From NCBI RefSeq assembly GCF_900095195.1, contig NZ_LT606950.1:727207-759206 (forward strand): a stretch of DNA of 32,000 nucleotides, written 5' to 3'. Each line of letters starts with the position of its first letter. Positions within the stretch are counted from its first letter, which is position 1. This stretch comes from Polynucleobacter necessarius. Its GTDB lineage: Bacteria > Pseudomonadota > Gammaproteobacteria > Burkholderiales > Burkholderiaceae. A program made the translations under genes and the position numbers. The notes below the pieces were generated by a model. The model saw nothing but the letters and a program-made list of their open reading frames with translations. It was not told the origin of the DNA and did no database searches. Of the stretch, positions 1 through 8,964 are shown in pieces.

Positions 1-1
1 T

Positions 2-367
2 AAGATTATCGACACCCTACTCGATGCACGCCAAATGTTCCCAGGAAAGCGCAATTCATTAGATGCGCTCTGCGATAGATTCAACATCAGCAATGAACAC
101 CGCACATTGCACGGCGCCTTATTGGATGCCCAACTGCTAGCAGAAGTTTATATTGCCATGACGCGAGGCCAAGAAGATCTATTGATTGATCTGATTGACT
201 ATACCGTTGGTGCCGATGTTGCCGGCAACAGCAAAGCATTGCCAGCTAATTTGAAAGTGCTGGCGGCTAGCGATGATGATCATGCACAACATGAGAAGAT
301 TCTTGCTGAAATCGCCAAGGCAAGCAAGAAGGATCCCGCCTGGAGTCCTGTCATAACAGTTTCTTAA
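2..367 (+). CDS. dnaQ: DNA polymerase III epsilon subunit (3'-5' proofreading exonuclease), C-terminal part; the 5' end lies outside the window
   Basis: Frame 2 is open from the window edge (KIIDTLLDARQMFPGKRNSLDALCDRF...HRTLHGALLDAQLLAEVY). This is the DnaQ ExoIII (H-x4-D) region followed by a low-complexity tail. Stop codon TAA at 365-367. Confidence 0.85.
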   Translation, partial: KIIDTLLDARQMFPGKRNSLDALCDRFNISNEHRTLHGALLDAQLLAEVYIAMTRGQEDLLIDLIDYTVGADVAGNSKALPANLKVLAASDDDHAQHEKILAEIAKASKKDPAWSPVITVS

Positions 368-1548
368 TTTACTGCTGTTTTTTCTTCGATTAATTTTTGA
401 TACAACGCTTCAAGATCGGTGACGTACTGTTTAGTGTCAAATAAAGGTGCGGATGTACGATTAGCCTCAAGCCTCTTCCTAAGATTCATCAGCAGCTGAG
501 GATTGCTGGCCAATTCAAAAAGTAATTAACTCAGGCAATCCCAAAGCGGATAATTGGCTTGCAGCAACCCTTCCAGCAAATGTTGAACCTATCTGCGTAA
601 GAACAGGAAGGCCAGCCCATAATGCATCAGCAGCAGTTGTATGAGCATTGTAGTTTGGTGCATCCAAAAATAAATCAGCTAGTCTAAGGCGCGAGAGATA
701 GACTGCTCTGCTTGGAACGAGCTCTGCAAAAATTAAGCGAGATGAATCAACGCCGCGTTTTAGCGCTTCGTTTACTAAATTTTTGGTTGCAACATCAGAG
801 AATTTTGACAGCCAAAGCACGCTGTGTGGAAACGACTTTAGCAATTTAATCCGGGTATCAAATACGGATGGCGTAATCTTGTAAAAATTATTGAAGTAGG
901 CAAACACCAGGCCATCTACTAGTAAGCCATGATCTTCTCTTTTGGGAAAAAGGCCTAGACTATCTATTGATATTGATGTGTCAGCAGAAAAAAAAGAATT
1001 GAGTAAATAAGAAACAAACTCAGTGTAATGAGGTCTGTCATTTGGCGGAAACACCACCTGATCAGCAATTAAACAGTCATAAAAATCTGCGCCTGAAGTG
1101 CCTGCAAAGCCAAGATAATTAACCTGAGGCGGTGCAATGCGGTTTGCAAACAATGCGGTTCTAGCTCCTGTAGTATGGCAATTTAAATCGATGGCGATAT
1201 ATCAATATCTAAGCTCCCTAATAAATCAAAGACTTCCTGATCACTCATATTATGAGTGTGATAGCAATGATCAAATAATGCCTTAAATTGCTCTTCGACC
1301 TCATCACCTGTTTCTCTATTCAAAAATACTCCAGATACTTCAAATCGTGATCTGTCATGCATTTTGACTATGTTTTTCATTAAAACGCCAACAGGATGAA
1401 ATTTAAAATCGGATGAAAAATAAGCAATTCTTATTTTTGAATCAGCCGATTTAGGTTTGATGACTAGTGTTTTATTTTTGGTAGTTAGATATTTGTTACG
1501 AACATACTGGATTGCACATTTTTTTGAAGCTCTAATGATGCTGGCGTA
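364..1548 (-). pseudogene. SPY/OGT-like (GT41 family) glycosyltransferase, catalytic half only, with multiple lesions
   Basis: Three frames together give KIRIAYFSSDFKFHPVG...HDRSRFEV...DIDI[A]IDLNCHTTGARTALFANRIAPPQVNYLGFAGTSGADFYDCLIAD...GLPVLT...GLPELIT //LFELASNPQLLMNLRKRLEANRTSAPLFDTKQYVTDLEALYQKL*. There is a 2-bp AT insertion at about 1197-1202 and a frameshifting deletion at about 518-530. The N-terminal TPR region is absent. The stop codon (364-366) overlaps the dnaQ stop. The upstream limit (1450-1548) is uncertain. Confidence 0.7.
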
Positions 1549-1551
1549 TTA

Positions 1552-2069
1552 AGCAAGATAAATGGCATGGCCACAGATTTATTTGCAGAAACGAGCTCTA
1601 GCTTCTGGATAGCCCAAATGATCAAGCATCATAGCGCCACTCCATATTTGCCCGATGGGGTTAGCGATCATTTTGCCGTAAATATCTGGCGTTGAGCTAT
1701 GGATGGGTTCAAATAATGATGGGAACTTGCCTTCAGGATTAATACTTCCAGACGGAGCAACGGCAATCGTCCCAGTACATGCCGGACCTAAGTCAGAAAG
1801 AATATCACCAAATAAGTTGCTCGCCACAACCACATCAAAGCGATCGGGATTCATCACAAAATGGGCCGCCAAAATGTCGATATGGTATTTATCGGTTCGC
1901 ACATCTGCAAACTGTTGAGCCATTTCTTCAACACGCTCATCCCAATATGGCATCGTAATAGCGATACCGTTTGACTTCGTAGCAGATGTTAGATGCTTCT
2001 TAGGCCGACTTTGAGCAAGGTAATATGCGTATTGCAATATGCGATCAACGCCCTGATGAGTAAATAAAG
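1552..2069 (-). pseudogene. ttuC: Tartrate dehydrogenase/decarboxylase (D-malate / 3-isopropylmalate dehydrogenase family), 3' half
   Basis: LFTHQGVDRILQYAYYLAQSRPKKHLTSATKSNGI...DILAAHFVMNPDRFDVVVASNLFGDILSDLGPACTGTIAVAPSGSINPEG...FEPIHSSTPDIYGKMIANPIGQIWSGAMMLDHLG. It continues seamlessly from the + strand fragment that ends at 6937. There is an in-frame stop at 1579-1581, and the C-terminal roughly 30 codons are missing. Confidence 0.8.
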
Positions 2070-2171
2070 CGATAGGATGCTTAAAAAGCAGAATAAACGA
2101 GACAGCGAAGTCCTGCAGGCGTGAGCGTCAGGTCTTTATTTACCCAAAATTCTAATAACTACACAGACAAT

Positions 2172-3062
2172 ATGAATGCTCCAAAATCCTTTGAATCCAA
2201 AGAAGATATCGGCCACTATGTTGGTGGATCTGTCATCAGCCCTAAAGATGGTCGCTTTGCCGACGTATACAACCCTGCCAAGGGTGCAGTAGCCCGCAAA
2301 GTTGCTTTGGCGAGCCGCAAGGAGGTTGATTCTGCCGTTGCTGTCGCTCAAAAGGCATTTGACTCTTGGAGTCAGACTAGCCCCCTGCGTCGCGCTCGCA
2401 TTCTGTTTAAGTACTTAGAGCTACTCAATGCCAATCGCGATGAATTAGCAGCCATCATTACCGCCGAGCATGGCAAGGTGTTTACCGACGCACAGGGAGA
2501 AGTAACCCGTGGCATTGAAATCCTGGAATTCGCCACAGGCATCCCCGAGCTGCTAAAGGGTGACTACACCGAGCAGGTTTTAACAGATATTGATAACTGG
2601 GTCATGCGTCAACCCTTGGGTGTTGTAGCCGGTATTACGCCATTTAACTTTCCCGTCATGGTTCCCATGTGGATGTTCCCAATGGCAATCGCCTGTGGCA
2701 GTAGATGCCTTAATTGAAAATCCCGATGTCAAAGCCATTAGCTTTGTAGGTTCAACACCTATCGCAAATTACATCTATGAGCGTTGCGCGCATTTTGGCA
2801 AGCGCTCTCAAGCACTGGGTGGCGCAAAGAACCACATGGTTATCATGCCGGATGCGGACATTGATAAAGCCATCGATGCATTAGTAGGAGCTGCCTATGG
2901 TTCTGCAGGCGAGCGTTGTATGGCGATATCTGTAGCGGTTCTGGTTGGTGATGTGGCGGATAAGATCATGCCGAAATTAATTGAACGTACCAAAACGCTC
3001 AAGATTAAGAATGGAATGGAGCTCGATTTTTCTTGGGCGGCACCCTATTTGACAATGTTGCC
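2172..3062 (+). pseudogene. mmsA: Methylmalonate-semialdehyde dehydrogenase (CoA-acylating), 5' two-thirds with two internal deletions
   Basis: [19 protein letters not shown]...[27 protein letters not shown] // [28 protein letters not shown]...[15 protein letters not shown]...[14 protein letters not shown]...KIKNGMELD // [11 protein letters not shown]. About 40 codons are missing at about 2699 and about 45-60 codons at about 3027, and both deletions shift the frame. The fragment joins OYE sequence at 3059-3062. Confidence 0.85.
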
Positions 3063-3865
3063 GGTCGCAAGGCCTCCAGTGCAACACCCTGGGATGGTGG
3101 CCAACTTCTGTCAATCGATCAAGGTGGTTGGGAAACATTGGCACCTTCAGCCATTCCACAATTAGACGGGGAGACGGGGAGCGTTTACCACATGAACTCT
3201 CTAAAGTTGAGCTAAAGGATTTGATCGATGTGTTTGTGACTGCCGCTAAGCGGGCTGATCGCATAGGTCTTGACGGCATTGAGTTGCATGGAGCGCATGG
3301 TTATCTTTTGCATCAATTTTTATCACCGATCGCCAATCAGCGAACGGATGAATACGGTGGTTCGTTTGAGAATCGCATTCGCTTTCCATTGGAATTGTTT
3401 GCAGCAGTAAGGGCAGCCTACCAGGGCGTGCTTGGTATCCGCATCTCAGCAAGCGATTGGGTTGAGGGTGGGTGGATTCCAGAAGAAACGGCGAATTTTG
3501 CAAAACAATTAAAGTCATTGGGCTGCGATTTTGTACATATTTCTTCCGGTGGTATTTCTCCAAAACAAAAAATTGCGCTTGGCCCAAATTATCAGGTTCC
3601 GTTTGCCAAGATTGTGAAAGAGCAATCGGGTTTACCGACTATGACTGTTGGATTGATCACTGATCCACACCAAGCAGAAGAAATTTTACAAAAGGGGGAT
3701 GCGGATCTGATTGCATTAGCGCGAGCATTCTTGTACAAGCCGCGTTGGGGCTGGGAGGCCGCTGCTGCACTCAATGCAACAGTCAATGCCAATGAGCGCT
3801 ACTGGCGTTGTTTACCCAGAGAAGCTCAGTCAGTATTTGGAAGCGTTAAAGTAGGACAACGATAA
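3059..3865 (+). pseudogene. NADH:flavin oxidoreductase (Old Yellow Enzyme family), 3' two-thirds
   Basis: (HA)[37 protein letters not shown][frameshift]RLPHELSKVELKDLIDVFVTAAKRADRIGLDGIELHGAHGYLLHQFLSPIANQRTDEYGGSFENRIRFPLE... runs to the native stop at 3863-3865. The frameshift is caused by an 8-bp tandem duplication at 3165-3180. Confidence 0.85.
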
Positions 3866-3885
3866 ATAGAAAATTAGGAGATCAA

Positions 3886-4380
3886 ATGAACACTCTTCAG
3901 CAAGCGTTGTTATCAACTAGAAAATTACTAATCATGATCAGCTGGCTTTCTGCAGTCACGTCAGCTTTCGCCCAATCGTTCCCAGATAAATCCATTACTT
4001 TGGGTGGTACCCAATCCTCCCGGGGGCCTGGTAGATACGTCAGCGCATCTATTAAGTGAGCCTTTGACAAGGGTCATTGGCCAACCCGTTGTGGTTGACA
4101 ACAAGCCTGGTGCCAGCGGCAATATTGCCCATCAATACGTTGCGAATGCTAAACTAAACGGTTACACCTTGTTGATCTCATACTCGGGGTATCACGTTGG
4201 TAATCCTGCCTTGATGGATAAACTGCCATGGGACCCTATTAAGGACTTTTCGCCAATCGCTTTGCTGACGGTCTCAACGAACGTCATTGCGGTTCACCCA
4301 TCAGTACCTGTAAATAATTTGAAAGAATTTATTGCTTACGCTAAGGCCAACCCAGGAAAGTTAAATTACGCTTCTCGTAA
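3886..4380 (+). pseudogene. Bug/TctC-family periplasmic solute-binding protein, N-terminal half only
   Basis: AGGAG lies 6 nt upstream of the ATG at 3886. A signal peptide (MNTLQQALLSTRKLLIMISWLSAVTSAFA) is followed by QSFPDKSITL, then a +1 G frameshift at 4002-4004, then VPNPPGGLVDTSAHLL...GQPVVVDNKPGASGNIA...KLPWDPIKDFSPIALL...ANPGKLNYAS. The C-terminal half is deleted, and the fragment abuts the 3' end of the amidase. Confidence 0.75.
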
Positions 4381-5478
4381 TACGGGGTCAGGCAATGCAA
4401 GCGCAAACGCTCTTGCAACGCTGAGTAGCAAATGATCTTTACCTGGGCCCGCAATTAATTGGACGCCGATGGGAAGTCCATTAACTCCAGTTGAGATATT
4501 CAAGTTAATGCATGGCAAACCGAGTAGTGTCCACATTCTGCAAAATATAGGATCTCCGGTGCCGTCTTTGAGTAATGGCGCCTCTCCAATTGCACTTTGG
4601 GCAATGAGAATGTCCACTTGATTTTGAAATAACTCAGCAATCGTTTTGCGTGCTATCTCAGTTGCCTGCAAATCTTTGGAATATTGCTGGTAAGTGATAC
4701 GCTTACCGTCATCTAGCTGTTTGCTCAATAGGGGGCTGAGTTTTTTCGCATACTGCTCACGCTCAAATGCCAGGCTGCGCGATATTTCGTTAACCATGAT
4801 GCGCGTTTGCGTCTCGCGTAACGTATCGAATGAATTTGGCAGCGATAAATCGTTTACCAAGCTTTTTGCAATTTTTTCTGCCGCGAAGCGCGCAAGAGCA
4901 ATTGCTGCTATAGAAGCTTGGCTTGCGCACTCCCAATCGGACGTTTTGCAAACAGCGATTTTGGGTTTGTAATGGAGTGATTCGATTGTGCCCATAGCGT
5001 GGTCGCCACTCATTGCGGCAACACCCAACGCAACATCTTCAACACTTCTGCCAAAGCATCCCAGGGTATCCAACGACGGCGCCAAGCTTTTTACGCCAGC
5101 AACACTAATTTTGCCCAGGCTCGGTTTAAATCCCACGACGCCACAGTAGGAGGCTGGTCGAATGATGGATTCCGCAGTTTGACTTCCAGTAGCCAGTGGC
5201 ACCATGAAATCCGCAACCTCAGCAGCAGAGCTGCTAGATGATCCGCCAGGCGTATGTTCTGCATCGAATGGGTTAGTTGTGGGGCCGCTATTGAATGAGG
5301 CAAATTCCGTGGTGACGGTTTTACCTAAAATAATGGCGCCTTGTTGGCGCATTAGGGCTACCGATACAGCATCCGTTTTGGGGTAATGATGCGCATAGAT
5401 TGAGGAGCCATAGGAGGTTGGGAGGTCATAGGTATCAAAAGGTCCTTGATGCCAATCGGCAAGCCATGCAAAAGGCCC
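4366..5478 (-). pseudogene. Amidase (amidase-signature family), 3' five-sixths
   Basis: LLHGLPIGIKDL[1-bp deletion in the T-run, 5437-5440]FDTYDLPTSYGSSIYAHHYPKTDAVSVALMRQQGAIILGKTVTTEFA...HTPGGSSSSSAAEVA...IIRPASYCGVVGFKPS...GLPIGVQLIAGPG... The signature GGSSGGS has degraded to GGSSSSS. The N-terminal 65 codons lie on the + strand at 5919-6117. Confidence 0.8.
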
Positions 5479-5845
5479 TTTACAGCCCCTTTCATCATCA
5501 GCTTCACAGTGAGCCCTTCAGTAGCATGAGCCATTCTTGCTGGCCCTTCTAACCCAACAGTTTGAGCTATTCCCTTGAAATCTTCGCCATGTCCACTAAA
5601 GCAATCATCAACGGCATGGCAAAGCTCATGTACTAAGGTATCTAATAATTGCACGGGATCGTCAATCCACCGCCTGAACGCTCTCTTGGCCAGCATTGGC
5701 CCAAGGTTGTTCGAGGACTACTCGATGCCGGAAATCCACAAGAAACTCTCACTGGAGGGATGGCATAGCCAGCTTTTGAAAATACTGGCTCAAGGTGTCT
5801 TACGGCGTCCTCAAGTTATGCTTCCGTGCAAGTATGTTGCTTCAT
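5474..5845 (-). pseudogene. SprT-like / ArdC-C-terminal-type zinc metalloprotease domain protein, 5' part
   Basis: The sequence is spread over three frames: MKQHTCTEA / LEDAVRHLEPVFSKAGYAIPPVRVSCGFPASSSPRTTLGQCWPRERS / IDDPVQLLDTLVHELCHAVDDCFSGHGEDFKGIAQTVGLEG... It has an HExxH motif (HELCH). At least two frameshifts are present. The reading frame runs straight into amidase sequence at 5474-5478. Confidence 0.6.
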
Positions 5846-5918
5846 TAAAGATTAGGGTAATTAAGATTAAATTTGGGCTAAATTACGATCATACGCCACG
5901 AAAAGTAGAATAGGCTCG
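5846..5918. promoter_or_regulatory. AT-rich divergent intergenic region between the SprT-like and amidase start codons; presumed divergent promoters
   Basis: This is a 73-bp AT-rich spacer (taaagattagggtaattaagattaaatttgggctaaattacg...) between two divergently oriented start codons. I could not assign a confident -35/-10 pair. Confidence 0.3.
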
Positions 5919-6117
5919 ATGAGGGATTTAGAAAGCCTTAGCGCTCACCAAGCGGTCCGAGCCCTTGCCAGAAGGGAGATCAACGCTCAAGGTTTACTGC
6001 TAGCCTGCCTGGATCGAATTGGGCAGCGAGATAGCGTTGTACGGGCTTGGTCCAGCTTTGGGAAGGAAAATGCCCTTGTTCGTGCTAAATCGCTTGATAA
6101 AGGTCAAGAGTTGGGCC
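5919..6117 (+). pseudogene. Amidase, 5' fragment (first ~65 codons), fused in frame to the SprT-like 3' part
   Basis: MRDLESLSAHQAVRALARREINAQGLLLACLDRIGQRDSVVRAWSSFGKENALVRAKSLDKGQELG is a typical amidase N-terminus. The expected continuation (L)LHGLPIGIKD is on the minus strand at 5478 and downward. Confidence 0.7.
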
Positions 6118-6380
6118 CATATCCACATCAAGCCATTGTGTTTCCTCCACTAAGACCCAGCAATGCGAGTCGCAGTAAGGCGAAGTGTGGTCAATGCGGA
6201 TATGAGGTTACCCTTCTAAAAAAATGGGCCAGATATGGTGCGCCCATCTGCCCCAAAGACAATATCCGTATGCAGGAAGATATTCCAGAGACTATTGAAA
6301 ATACCGAAAATTACAATAGCGACTCGGTTGATAAAGGCTTGAAACCAAGCCGTGATGAGATCCAACGAGCCATTAGCTAA
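6113..6380 (+). pseudogene. SprT-like metalloprotease, 3' part (zinc-ribbon tail)
   Basis: PYPHQAIVFPPLRPSNASRSKAKCGQCGYEVTLLKKWARYGAPICPKDNIRMQE... carries the CxxC...CP zinc ribbon typical of SprT-like protein C-termini, followed by the native stop. Confidence 0.6.
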
Positions 6381-6446
6381 AAAAACCAACGCGTAAAGTT
6401 ACATCTAGACTAAAGCACTATTAAACGAGAGACTAAGACATCATGA

Positions 6447-6937
6447 ATGCAAAAAATATTTAAAAATCCCAAAATTGCAGTAATTCCTGGCGATGGAATT
6501 GGTAAGGAGGTAATCCCTGAGGGGGTGCGTGCGTTAGAGGCGGCTAATCGAAAGTTTAATATCGGTATGCAGTTTGATCATTTCGATTTTGCGAGCTGCG
6601 ATTATTACCAAAAGCGGCAAGATGTTACCTGATGATTGGTTTGATCTGTTGATGAAATACGATGCTATTTTCTTTGGCGCTATCGGTATGCCGAATATTC
6701 TTCCGGACCATGTGTCATTGTGGGGTAGTTTGATTCAGTTCCGTCGCGGCTTTGATCAGTACGTCAATCTGCGTCCGGTACGACTATTACCAGGGGTGCC
6801 ATGTCCGTTAGCAAATCGCAAACCGGGCGATATTGATTTCTTTGTTGTCCGCGAGAATACCGAAGGTGAATATTTAAGCGTTGGTGGAAAGATGTTTCCG
6901 GACACTGATCGCGAGTTTGTAATTCAGGAATCTTTAT
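6447..6937 (+). pseudogene. ttuC: Tartrate dehydrogenase/decarboxylase family, 5' half
   Basis: MQKIFKNPKIAVIPGDGIGKEVIPEGVRALEAA...FDFASCDYYQK[frameshift within 6609-6616]GKMLPDDWFDLLMKYDAIFFGAIGMP...LWGSLIQFRRGFDQYVNLRPVRLLPGV...DFFVVRENTEGEY...REFVIQESL. It ends at junction 6932-6937, and its continuation is the minus-strand fragment ending at 2069. Confidence 0.85.
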
Positions 6938-6948
6938 AGCAATTTTCG

Positions 6949-6981
6949 TATTTTGACCAAGATTTATTGGATATTTTGACC
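6949..6981 (+). repeat. 10-bp direct repeat TATTTTGACC x2 (6949-6958 and 6972-6981) upstream of the OYE start
   Basis: The two copies are exact and start 23 bp apart, 26-58 bp upstream of the ATG at 7007. Each contains a TTGACC (-35-like) hexamer. They could be an operator or tandem -35 elements. Confidence 0.3.
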
Positions 6982-7006
6982 CCATATCGTCCTTAAAGGC
7001 ATCAGC

Positions 7007-7333
7007 ATGAGTCTATTATTTAGCCCATACACCCTCAATTCTCCCCGTGGACCCTTGGGGCTCGCTAACCGAATTGTGGTGGCACCGATGTGCCAATATT
7101 CGGCGTCCAACGGCGAGGCAACCGATTGGCATTTAATGCATTGGGGTAATCTTCTAAATAGTGGTGCAGCACTTTTCATTATTGAGGCTACCGGTGTCAC
7201 ACCGGAGGCGAGAATTACACCAGCTTGTTTAGGTTTATGGGATGACCGCACTGAAGCAGCACTTAGGGATAAATTGATTCGAGCGCGAAAGTTAGTTCCA
7301 GCAACACCTGTATTTATTCAATTGGCACATGCC
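7007..7333 (+). pseudogene. NADH:flavin oxidoreductase (Old Yellow Enzyme family), 5' third
   Basis: [80 protein letters not shown]...PVFIQLAHA stops exactly before the canonical GRK, which is found at 3063. It is fused in frame to the mmsA 3' end. Confidence 0.85.
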
Positions 7334-7703
7334 CCAAACATGAAGATCTATTTAGAAGAGATCTTTAGGCCCGTCTTGTCCTGTGTGCGTGTTGCCAACT
7401 TTACCGATGCATTGAATTTAGTCAACTTTTGCGAGTACGGCAATGGGGTTGCTTGTTTCACGAGCGACGGAAATATTGCCCGTGAATTTGCTCGCCGAGT
7501 TCAAGTTGGCATGGTTGGTATTAACGTTCCCATTCCAGCGCCCATGGCATGGCTTTGGCGGCTGGAAAAAATCGCTCTTTGGCGATATGCACGCTTACAG
7601 CAAAGAAGGTGTGCGCTTCTATACCAAACAAAAAAGTGTGATGCAACGCTGGCCAGAAAGCATCGCAAAAGGTGCTGAGTTTGTCATGCCTACCTCCAAG
7701 TAG
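7330..7703 (+). pseudogene. mmsA: Methylmalonate-semialdehyde dehydrogenase, 3' quarter
   Basis: (A)[73 protein letters not shown][5-bp deletion][51 protein letters not shown]. The conserved ALDH motif EEIFGPV reads EEIFRPV here. Confidence 0.85.
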
Positions 7704-7732
7704 GCATTATTTTTGTATGGTGCCCAACAATA

Positions 7733-8218
7733 TTACTGAAGAGTATTTTTAAAAGCAGGTATGATTGGAACTGCGAGCACCTCAATACCCTCTTCTCGCA
7801 ATGATTCTGCTTCATCTAAAGTGGTTTGACCACGAATGCTGCGCTCAGGGGCTTCCTTGTAATGAATCTTTCTAGCTTCCCCTGCAAAAGCAGGGCCAAC
7901 GTCCTCGGGTTTACCCATCAGCTCACGCATACCCTTCAAAAAGGCGGCCTGTACTTGAGCCTCTAGTTGTGAATGATCATTACCCGTCAAAGCCACAACC
8001 TCGCCACTCGAATTTCCAATGTCCTCGCTCGGCGCAGTTACCGCCGTAGACGAGGACTTTGCGATATGCGGCGCAGAAGGCATCCGACTGATTTGGGTGC
8101 TGTCACAAATTGGGCAAGCCAGTATCCCCCGCTTCTGCTGAGCAAGACAGTCCTCTTCAGAGGAAAACCACCCTTCAAAGCGGTGATCTAAGGGACATGC
8201 GAGGTTATAGACTTTCAT
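7733..8218 (-). CDS. DUF1178 family protein (zinc-ribbon-like N-terminus)
   Basis: Intact 161-aa ORF: MKVYNLACPLDHRFEGWFSSEEDCLAQQKRGILACPICDSTQISRMPSAP... It matches the DUF1178 pattern that, as I recall, commonly lies downstream of nuo in Burkholderiales. Confidence 0.75.
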   Translation of the reverse strand: MKVYNLACPLDHRFEGWFSSEEDCLAQQKRGILACPICDSTQISRMPSAPHIAKSSSTAVTAPSEDIGNSSGEVVALTGNDHSQLEAQVQAAFLKGMRELMGKPEDVGPAFAGEARKIHYKEAPERSIRGQTTLDEAESLREEGIEVLAVPIIPAFKNTLQ

Positions 8219-8279
8219 AAGACCTATATAGTGGCAAAAATACCAAATTCAATAATCCCTATTTTAATAGGAATTAAAG

Positions 8280-8885
8280 TTACCTATTTAATGGGCTTGG
8301 GAGTTTACCAGCCCTTCGGCGGTATCGGTCCAGCCAATACCCTGAAATGGTCGTTTTTACGTCCGTAATTTCACCTTCTTCGATCCACGTCAAGAGCTGC
8401 TCCAAAGGTGCCGCAAAAACATCCAAAAGCTCTTCGGCGTCAAGCTTACTTTTACCAGGCACTAAATCCTCAGCCAAATAAATATCGATGAACTCGGTCG
8501 AATAGGAAATCACAGGATGTATGCGGCGTATGTAGCTCCATTTCCTAGCGGTATATCCAGTCTCCTCTTCCAGCTCACGCTGGGCACAGAGCAGATGATC
8601 CTCTCCATGATCTAGCTTGCCAGCTGGAATCTCAATGCAGGCTTTGTCAACGGGGTAGCGATACTGACGCTCCAGCAATACCCTGCCATCATCTAACAAA
8701 GCCACAATCGCTACTGCACCAGGGTGTGTTAAATATTCTCGCGCTGCTATCTGCCCATCGGGTAACCGAACCTGATCACGCTTCATATTTAGGAATATTC
8801 CGCCATAAATATCCTCACCAGAAACACGCTCTTCCCGTAAATGCGTATCCCCACTTGGTAAATCGGCAAACGATTTTTCAGTCAT
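8280..8885 (-). CDS. NUDIX hydrolase (ADP-ribose pyrophosphatase-like)
   Basis: Intact 201-aa ORF with a Nudix box: GKLDHGEDHLLCAQRELEEETGY (G-x5-E-x7-REUxEExGU). Confidence 0.85.
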   Translation of the reverse strand: MTEKSFADLPSGDTHLREERVSGEDIYGGIFLNMKRDQVRLPDGQIAAREYLTHPGAVAIVALLDDGRVLLERQYRYPVDKACIEIPAGKLDHGEDHLLCAQRELEEETGYTARKWSYIRRIHPVISYSTEFIDIYLAEDLVPGKSKLDAEELLDVFAAPLEQLLTWIEEGEITDVKTTISGYWLDRYRRRAGKLPSPLNR

Positions 8886-8964
8886 GAATATACTTTCAAC
8901 GAACTATTTTTAATTGTACCTGAAAACCATGTCATTCAGGTGTCATCGAATTTATATCAGGCAG

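Follow-up and report, generated by a model that had tools for sequence, protein, structure and literature searches.

A dead, scrambled seven-gene block in an apparently reduced Polynucleobacter genome and its probable origin by three inversions at 4–6-bp inverted repeats

Illegitimate, RecA-independent recombination between short inverted repeats reportedly produced inversions in the Escherichia coli lac and plasmid studies of the 1990s, where the repeats are said to have been ~12–23 bp long, and small plastome inversions are likewise said to have flanking short inverted repeats. In spirotrich ciliates, scrambled germline genes consist of macronuclear-destined segments (MDSs) that are joined via short 'pointer' repeats, with internal eliminated sequences (IESs) as spacers, in a programmed unscrambling. 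Plastid and mitochondrial genomes show microhomology inversion junctions (U-turn-like) that arise under replication stress, with a replication-linked origin proposed, and that RecA suppresses, and those of wild-type plastids carry short inverted microhomologies of mostly 5–9 bp (PMC4417113). In the young symbionts Sodalis and Serratia symbiotica, rearrangement is driven by insertion sequences (ISs), with inversions and gene disruption early after host restriction (PMC4285135). The Euplotes symbionts named Polynucleobacter necessarius have a genome of ~1.56 Mb with hundreds of pseudogenes (~18% pseudogenisation) and no mobile elements (PMC5632650; PMC4285135). Here we describe a stretch of 32,000 nucleotides (contig NZ_LT606950.1; hereafter the window), most likely from a Polynucleobacter with a reduced genome living as a Euplotes endosymbiont, in which a block of seven accessory genes (364–7703) is dead and scrambled, in our judgement probably by three successive conservative short-homology inversions in selectively neutral DNA.

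The locus resembles what is summarised of the reductive evolution of P. necessarius (Boscaro et al. 2013, as summarised in PMC5632650 and PMC4285135) in coming from the same genus, with a probably reduced genome, accessory pseudogenes beside intact housekeeping genes, and no mobile elements. The contig that carries the window measures 1,550,368 bp, as against ~2.0–2.2 Mb for contigs of named free-living strains. Erosion is presented in those summaries as pseudogenisation and loss, and, as far as the summaries extend, local scrambling by nested inversions is not mentioned. In contrast to Sodalis and Serratia symbiotica, the breakpoints in the window carry no IS or repeat copies.

The ancestral state of the block can be read from its relatives. 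In P. yangtzensis (L001), the genes run dnaQ(+), ttuC(−), sprT-like(−), amidase(+), tctC(−), OYE(−), mmsA(+), DUF1178(−), and nudix(−). When the genome collection was scanned with the amidase fragment, 13 Polynucleobacter loci were retrieved, with up to 10 kb of flanking sequence. The conserved order was present in all 13 (one of them, L013, ends inside the amidase gene), in ten metagenome contigs whose genes were called at full length, and in the Euplotes symbiont genome LT615228 (L087). All relatives examined thus hold unsplit genes in a single order. A GT41 glycosyltransferase gene lies between dnaQ and ttuC in L006, L010, L012, and LT615228, in the last as an intact 687-aa gene with tetratricopeptide repeats (TPR-GT41), and is absent from the other loci examined. 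A first-pass annotation of the window, made from its letters alone, had predicted the order dnaQ(+), SPY-GT(−), ttuC(−), sprT-like(−), amidase(+), tctC(−), OYE(−), mmsA(+), DUF1178(−) and had proposed an alignment to Polynucleobacter relatives as a check; with that alignment run, orthologues stand in the predicted order and orientation, and the order is matched exactly in more than 20 relatives. The closest free-living contig found (L089) is 94% identical in OYE and only 72–78% identical in DNA. Local differences also occur among the loci: L008 is without tctC, L009 has ~3 kb of additional DNA between mmsA and DUF1178, and in L010 and L011 DUF1178 is not 3′ of mmsA, where two distant tctC paralogues lie 3–4 kb downstream instead. 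In the window itself, the OYE-proximal intergenic DNA at ~6945–6965 (6305–6325 in the reconstructed ancestor) has ~20 bases more than in all aligned relatives.

In LT615228, the block is also decaying: frameshifts split mmsA, tctC, and the amidase gene, and a truncation shortens sprT-like. Its order is nonetheless collinear, indicating that the block is dispensable in symbionts and that the inversions are particular to the lineage of the window. The genes ttuC, OYE, and TPR-GT41 of LT615228 (L087 10561–19668) are still open, and its decay is independent of that in the window.

We mapped the genes of the window by tblastn with the intact P. yangtzensis proteins as queries. Five genes were recovered as complementary halves, all at the places assigned by the first-pass annotation: ttuC (aa 7–179 at 6420–6936(+), aa 178–334 at 2070–1600(−)), sprT-like (aa 1–127 at 5845–5493(−), aa 130–220 at 6105–6377(+)), amidase (aa 4–65 at 5919–6104(+), aa 59–437 at 5507–4372(−)), OYE (aa 1–127 at 6932–7333(+), aa 127–391 at 3060–3862(+)), and mmsA (aa 8–335 at 2166–3027(+), aa 392–515 at 7334–7700(+)), the N-terminal mmsA piece having a short extension up to 3062 in the DNA alignment. 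The C-terminal half of ttuC aligned at 91% identity and corresponds to Iso_dh profile positions 168–311 in Pfam. By open reading frame (ORF) listing and Pfam, the block holds nothing other than fragments (Glyco_transf_41, Iso_dh, Aldedh, Oxidored_FMN, TctC, Amidase, and SprT-like), and intact orthologues pass the NCBIfam cut-offs of TIGR02089 (tartrate dehydrogenase) and TIGR01722 (methylmalonate-semialdehyde dehydrogenase).

Splitting is not the only damage. Each gene in the block has at least one frameshift or deletion besides it, which bears out the annotation's view that no functional gene remains there, and the same genes are intact (as called) in L081–L085 and L089–L092. The GT41 remnant has several frameshifts and stops and has lost approximately its N-terminal third; ttuC has a 2-bp deletion (frameshift) near 6616 and an eroded 3′ end; sprT-like has a 25-bp deletion; the amidase gene is frameshifted near 5439; and tctC has a frameshift and has lost the codons from ~165 to the end, i.e., its C-terminal half. 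The OYE remnant is frameshifted by a perfect 8-bp tandem duplication (ACGGGGAG ACGGGGAG, 3166–3181), a slippage-type lesion. In mmsA there are deletions of 122, 133, and 5 bp, the first two within the N-terminal two thirds (block 6, Table 1) and the last near 7543; a check of the 122-bp and 133-bp deletions for direct-repeat microhomology, which would have pointed to the same process as the inversions, found a possible 3-bp GCA at one and none clear at the other, at high divergence from the relatives. Nucleotide lesion lists for GT41, tctC, and the amidase gene were noisy (many small compensating indels at ~66–76% identity), and the lesions accepted were large deletions and frame changes seen by tblastn as well.

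Against L089, blastn resolved the window into nine segments of alternating orientation whose ends abut in L089 coordinates. Numbered by their place in the conserved order, the blocks of the window (Table 1) form the signed permutation (+1, +6, −4, +3, −2, −5, +7). Reversal in silico of 5479–6112, then of 2070–6931, and then of the OYE/mmsA segment gave a reconstructed ancestor that is collinear with 18 of the 18 relatives tested. Single high-scoring segment pairs span the healed ttuC, sprT, amidase, and OYE junctions, and the reconstruction is interrupted only by deletions in the window, namely the C-terminal half of tctC and the 122 bp and 133 bp in mmsA. When the reconstructed ancestor and ten relatives were aligned with MAFFT over ±45 nt, gaps were present at none of the six healed junctions, and the rearrangement therefore neither lost nor gained bases. 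The halves, earlier said to abut seamlessly, do so at the nucleotide level at all six junctions.

When signed permutations were searched exhaustively, the reversal distance came out at exactly 3, with three minimal histories that share one identical set of inversions, A, B, and C (Table 1). Inversion A precedes inversion B in every minimal history, and inversion C is free in order. Only 35 of 2121 six-breakpoint arrangements (1.65%) can be sorted by three reversals, so that random rejoining would seldom yield an arrangement of this kind. Chromothripsis-like shattering was rejected on the three-reversal-sortable arrangement, the lack of any lost fragment, and the paired microhomology at the junctions.

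The junction sequences agree with this history. A perfect inverted repeat is found at each inversion, of 4 bp at A, 5 bp at C, and 6 bp at B, and the pairing of the repeats coincides with the three inversions demanded by parsimony. A null of 200,000 breakpoint pairs drawn at random from the same sequence gave P = 0.018, 0.0056, and 0.0015 for repeats of at least 4, at least 5, and at least 6 bp, respectively, and the junction microhomologies are thus far above chance length. In the reconstructed ancestor, the two ATAAAG copies lie on the same strand, as direct repeats, and become inverted only after A, an independent agreement with the A-before-B order from parsimony. These results uphold the first-pass annotation in its claims that the current order lies three reversals from an intact one with one junction pair per reversal, that the 6-bp homology is inverted only after the OYE/mmsA inversion, and that the amidase/SprT inversion, which can be placed anywhere in the minimal histories, is independent of the other two. 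Its further claim, that the OYE/mmsA inversion must precede the ttuC/intergenic one, holds among inversion-only histories and is not forced if a concerted exchange or an excision with reintegration is allowed.

Table 1. Features of the scrambled block and its surroundings, in window coordinates
Feature	Position	Strand	Remarks
Inversion A			blocks 5–6, ~1.39 kb; GGCA in OYE / TGCC in mmsA
Inversion B			blocks 2 to −6, ~4.86 kb; ATAAAG in ttuC / CTTTAT in OYE–mmsA intergenic (inverted already by A)
Inversion C			block 3, ~0.63 kb; GGCCC in sprT-like / GGGCC in amidase
Junction repeat ATAAAG	2064–2069		left arm of B, 1/6 junction; pairs with 6932–6937
Junction repeat TGCC	3059–3062		arm of A, 6/−4 junction; pairs with 7330–7333
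Junction repeat GGCCC	5474–5478		left arm of C; pairs with 6113–6117
Junction repeat GGGCC	6113–6117		right arm of C; inside palindrome GGGCCC 6113–6118
Junction repeat CTTTAT	6932–6937		right arm of B
Junction repeat TGCC	7330–7333		second arm of A, −5/7 junction
Block 1	1–2069	+	ancestral orientation; ends in ttuC C-terminal half (1552–2069, −)
Block 6	2070–3058	+	ancestral orientation, displaced; mmsA-proximal part of OYE–mmsA intergenic and N-terminal two thirds of mmsA
Block 4	3063–5473	−	inverted; holds OYE, tctC, and amidase remnants
OYE C-terminal part (block 4)	3059–3865	now +	
tctC remnant (block 4)	3886 to ~4390	now +	
Amidase C-terminal part (block 4)	5478–4366	now −	frameshifted
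Block 3	5479–6112	+	flipped twice, ancestral orientation again; includes sprT–amidase intergenic region
sprT-like N-terminal part (block 3)	5845–5474	−	
Amidase N-terminus (block 3)	5919–6117	+	
Block 2	6118–6931	−	inverted
sprT-like C-terminal part (block 2)	6113–6380	now +	
ttuC N-terminal half (block 2)	6447–6937	now +	
Block 5	6938–7329	−	inverted; OYE-proximal part of OYE–mmsA intergenic and OYE N-terminus (7007–7333, now +)
Block 7	7334 onward	+	starts with mmsA C-terminal part, 7334–7703
Spurious 223-aa ORF	7007–7678	+	OYE N-terminus and mmsA C-terminus in frame; product of inversion A
TPR/GT41 (SPINDLY-like) glycosyltransferase remnant	364–1550	−	Pfam Glyco_transf_41, E = 5e-49
dnaQ (DNA polymerase III epsilon) 3′ part	2–367	+	open; left anchor of block
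DUF1178 gene	7733–8218	−	intact, right anchor of block; full-length Pfam match, E = 7e-45
Minus-strand housekeeping run	8900–32000	−	nuoN to nuoA, tRNA-Leu, secG, tpiA, Zn-dependent dehydrogenase (quinone oxidoreductase), pnp, rpsO, tRNA-Pro, MerR, HU/IHF, pheT

Beyond the 4–6-bp cores, the breakpoint flanks have no homology, imperfect matches included, and no repeat of at least 12 nt links any breakpoint pair in the window; the ATAAAG, GGCCC, and TGCC pairs share no common motif. One longer repeat does touch a junction: a 13-nt inverted repeat, 92% complementary, joins 2057–2069 (TGAGTAAATAAAG) and 2134–2146 (CTTTATTTACCCA). Its left arm reaches precisely to junction 2069, and the two arms could pair in a hairpin with a 64-nt loop. 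We rejected it as the cause of that junction, at which an inversion or template switch at this repeat predicts a different junction sequence. With ~0.1 such coincidences of repeat and junction expected by chance, its position is probably fortuitous.

The same junctions bear on whether a mobile element or a site-specific invertase could have shuffled the block, by IS-mediated inversion or as in a shufflon-like or phase-variable system. Inversions in young symbionts are usually due to ISs (PMC4285135), and nothing in the window supports their action here. In agreement with the annotation's statement that transposases, IS ends, and recombinases are lacking, the ORF listing, Pfam, and the repeat search identified no transposase, integrase, invertase, or other recombinase in the 32 kb and no IS or long inverted repeat at any breakpoint, which speaks against an element acting through inverted copies or through ends with target-site duplications. 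All of the DNA of 1594–8886 aligns to relatives, so nothing has been inserted. Of the hallmarks of site-specific inversion, neither an adjacent recombinase gene nor a shared recognition sequence is present in the window, and all genes involved are dead. With no long repeat at the breakpoint pairs and no motif common to them, we find a mobile element or invertase scarcely credible.

How the inversions came about is best approached from their products. The seven-gene block (TPR-GT41, ttuC, sprT-like, amidase, tctC, OYE, and mmsA), conserved in free-living relatives, has become dispensable and is decaying, and the dead tract would also have undergone three reciprocal inversions, separate and sequential, each with its crossover within a 4–6-bp inverted repeat. 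The recombination would have been of the short-homology illegitimate type, RecA-independent or replication-associated, and selective neutrality of the tract, whether useless beforehand or only later, may have allowed fixation without any selection. The loss-free outcome fits a crossover in ultra-short homology, or the religation of staggered breaks, and candidate enzymologies are RecA-independent short-homology recombination, strand exchange at a fork, and exchange mediated by a type II topoisomerase. Simple microhomology end joining was rejected, as it would remove one repeat copy whereas both are kept, and replicative template switching normally leaves duplications or deletions, none of which is seen, which argues against it. 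The first-pass annotation had called short-homology illegitimate recombination the simplest mechanism; the paired microhomologies and the absence of mobile elements agree with this, and the enzymology itself stays at the level of candidates.

Several considerations weigh against three successive inversions. By our own reasoning, one concerted partner exchange could reach the same end state, and separate events are not established by the sequence in itself. Three rare events within 5.3 kb, set against none in the block of the parallel symbiont LT615228, hint at a single burst. Relatives are only 72–78% identical in DNA, and the microhomologies are accordingly read from the two present copies and not from the true ancestor; in the alignment, the TGCC of mmsA and the CTTTAT of ttuC are lineage-specific variants. 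The scrambled arrangement is known from one assembly alone, and the sole public match of the chimeric ORF made by inversion A comes from the same genome.

The first two of these points would be met by one concerted event, in which six breaks or three simultaneous crossovers occur in a conservative, chromoplexy-like manner within one cell generation, e.g., at a collapsed replication fork. In our reading of the block map, all six junctions amount to a partner swap at each repeat pair (a-e′, f-d, c′-b′, c-b, a′-e, and d′-f′), and an order of events is then no longer required. However, no bacterial mechanism is known for making six staggered breaks and joining them again without loss, replicative template-switch models usually leave duplications or deletions, of which there are none here, and sequential inversions in neutral DNA require no special assumption. 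We regard a concerted event as rather improbable.

The direct orientation of the ATAAAG copies in the ancestor also suggests a different route, in which blocks 2–5 were excised at these repeats as a 4.3-kb circle and reintegrated in inverted orientation at TGCC/GGCA, inversion C being separate. By our reckoning, this takes three double-cut-and-join steps, as many as there are inversions. However, a non-replicating circle of dead genes must reintegrate via a 4-bp match before it is lost, with no selection for doing so, and intramolecular inversion is far likelier than excision and reintegration; we consider this route highly unlikely.

The occurrence in one assembly raises the question of an artefact, either a misassembly or chimeras from whole-genome amplification, which are in general often inverted and joined at microhomologies. 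In the public protein collection, the spurious ORF that joins OYE and mmsA matches a single entry at 100% identity (P0121, which has two Pfam domains), derived from the same contig, and no other protein there covers both of its halves. A 28-mer across junction 7330 had zero matches in the metagenome contigs, and the search for a sister strain with an intermediate arrangement found none, the best DUF1178 relative being 92% identical. However, assemblers do not misjoin at 4–6-bp repeats, chimeric reads are individually unique and carry single junctions, not three nested inversions with both reciprocal junctions and no base lost, and the flanking 24 kb is intact and colinear. An artefact is thus very unlikely in our view, and three successive inversions remain the reading that we favour.

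Set beside the inversions reported for E. coli, the three inversions proposed here are alike in being reciprocal and conservative, with breakpoints in a short inverted repeat and no mobile element or dedicated recombinase. The repeats in the window are shorter, at 4–6 bp, than those reported from the E. coli work, and the events were unselected, would have been fixed neutrally in dead DNA, and lie nested, three in 5.3 kb. The likeness to the scrambled genes of ciliates, with permuted and inverted segments and a 4–6-bp repeat shared by each pair to be joined, is formal, because any inversion mediated by inverted repeats yields it; the ciliate system is eukaryotic and micronuclear, with IESs as spacers, whereas the blocks in the window lie end to end in a bacterial chromosome, where nothing restores their order. 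With the organelle inversions, the locus shares an endosymbiont-derived genome and short inverted microhomology at the junctions, but U-turn junctions are single, non-reciprocal, mostly <50 bp, and found in low-frequency molecules (PMC4417113), whereas in the window both reciprocal junctions are fixed and the inversions span 0.6–4.9 kb.

The surroundings of the block are intact. It is bracketed by the 3′ end of dnaQ, of which the last 121 codons lie inside the window in an open reading frame with 83% identity to aa 134–254 of P. yangtzensis dnaQ (tblastn) and a weak RNase_T match in the Pfam scan, and by the DUF1178 gene, which has zero indels in a nucleotide alignment to its L089 orthologue. 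The flanking nudix gene is an open, full-length ORF, with only two single-base gaps in its alignment, close to the 3′ end. The remaining ~24 kb of the window is colinear and consists of intact housekeeping genes; no pseudogene is evident in 8900–32000, in sharp contrast to 364–7703.

Symbiont DNA in decay is known to undergo this kind of process, inversion at short inverted repeats, and the locus is a clean example that can be reconstructed in full rather than a new type of system. As a natural record of illegitimate recombination it is unusually clean, with the ancestral bases kept at six breakpoints, the ancestor independently known, and the history uniquely reconstructible. It also carries a caution for annotation: gene callers make plausible chimeras of such junctions, through which scrambled pseudogenes may enter databases as seeming multidomain proteins, and pseudogene counts based on colinear alignment would double-count or overlook each split gene. 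We think it unlikely, if worth keeping in mind, that the exchanges were not independent (a single conservative multi-break, chromoplexy-like) or that they are the local sign of a genome-wide regime of microhomology inversion in an IS-free symbiont that has lost a suppressor; were such a regime real, inversion would stand besides deletion as a regular and overlooked mode of pseudogene erosion. If there are many such events genome-wide, the rates of inversion and deletion during genome erosion would become measurable. For the symbiont itself, the locus indicates that a genome without mobile elements can rearrange locally via 4–6-bp inverted repeats where a tract is no longer under selection.

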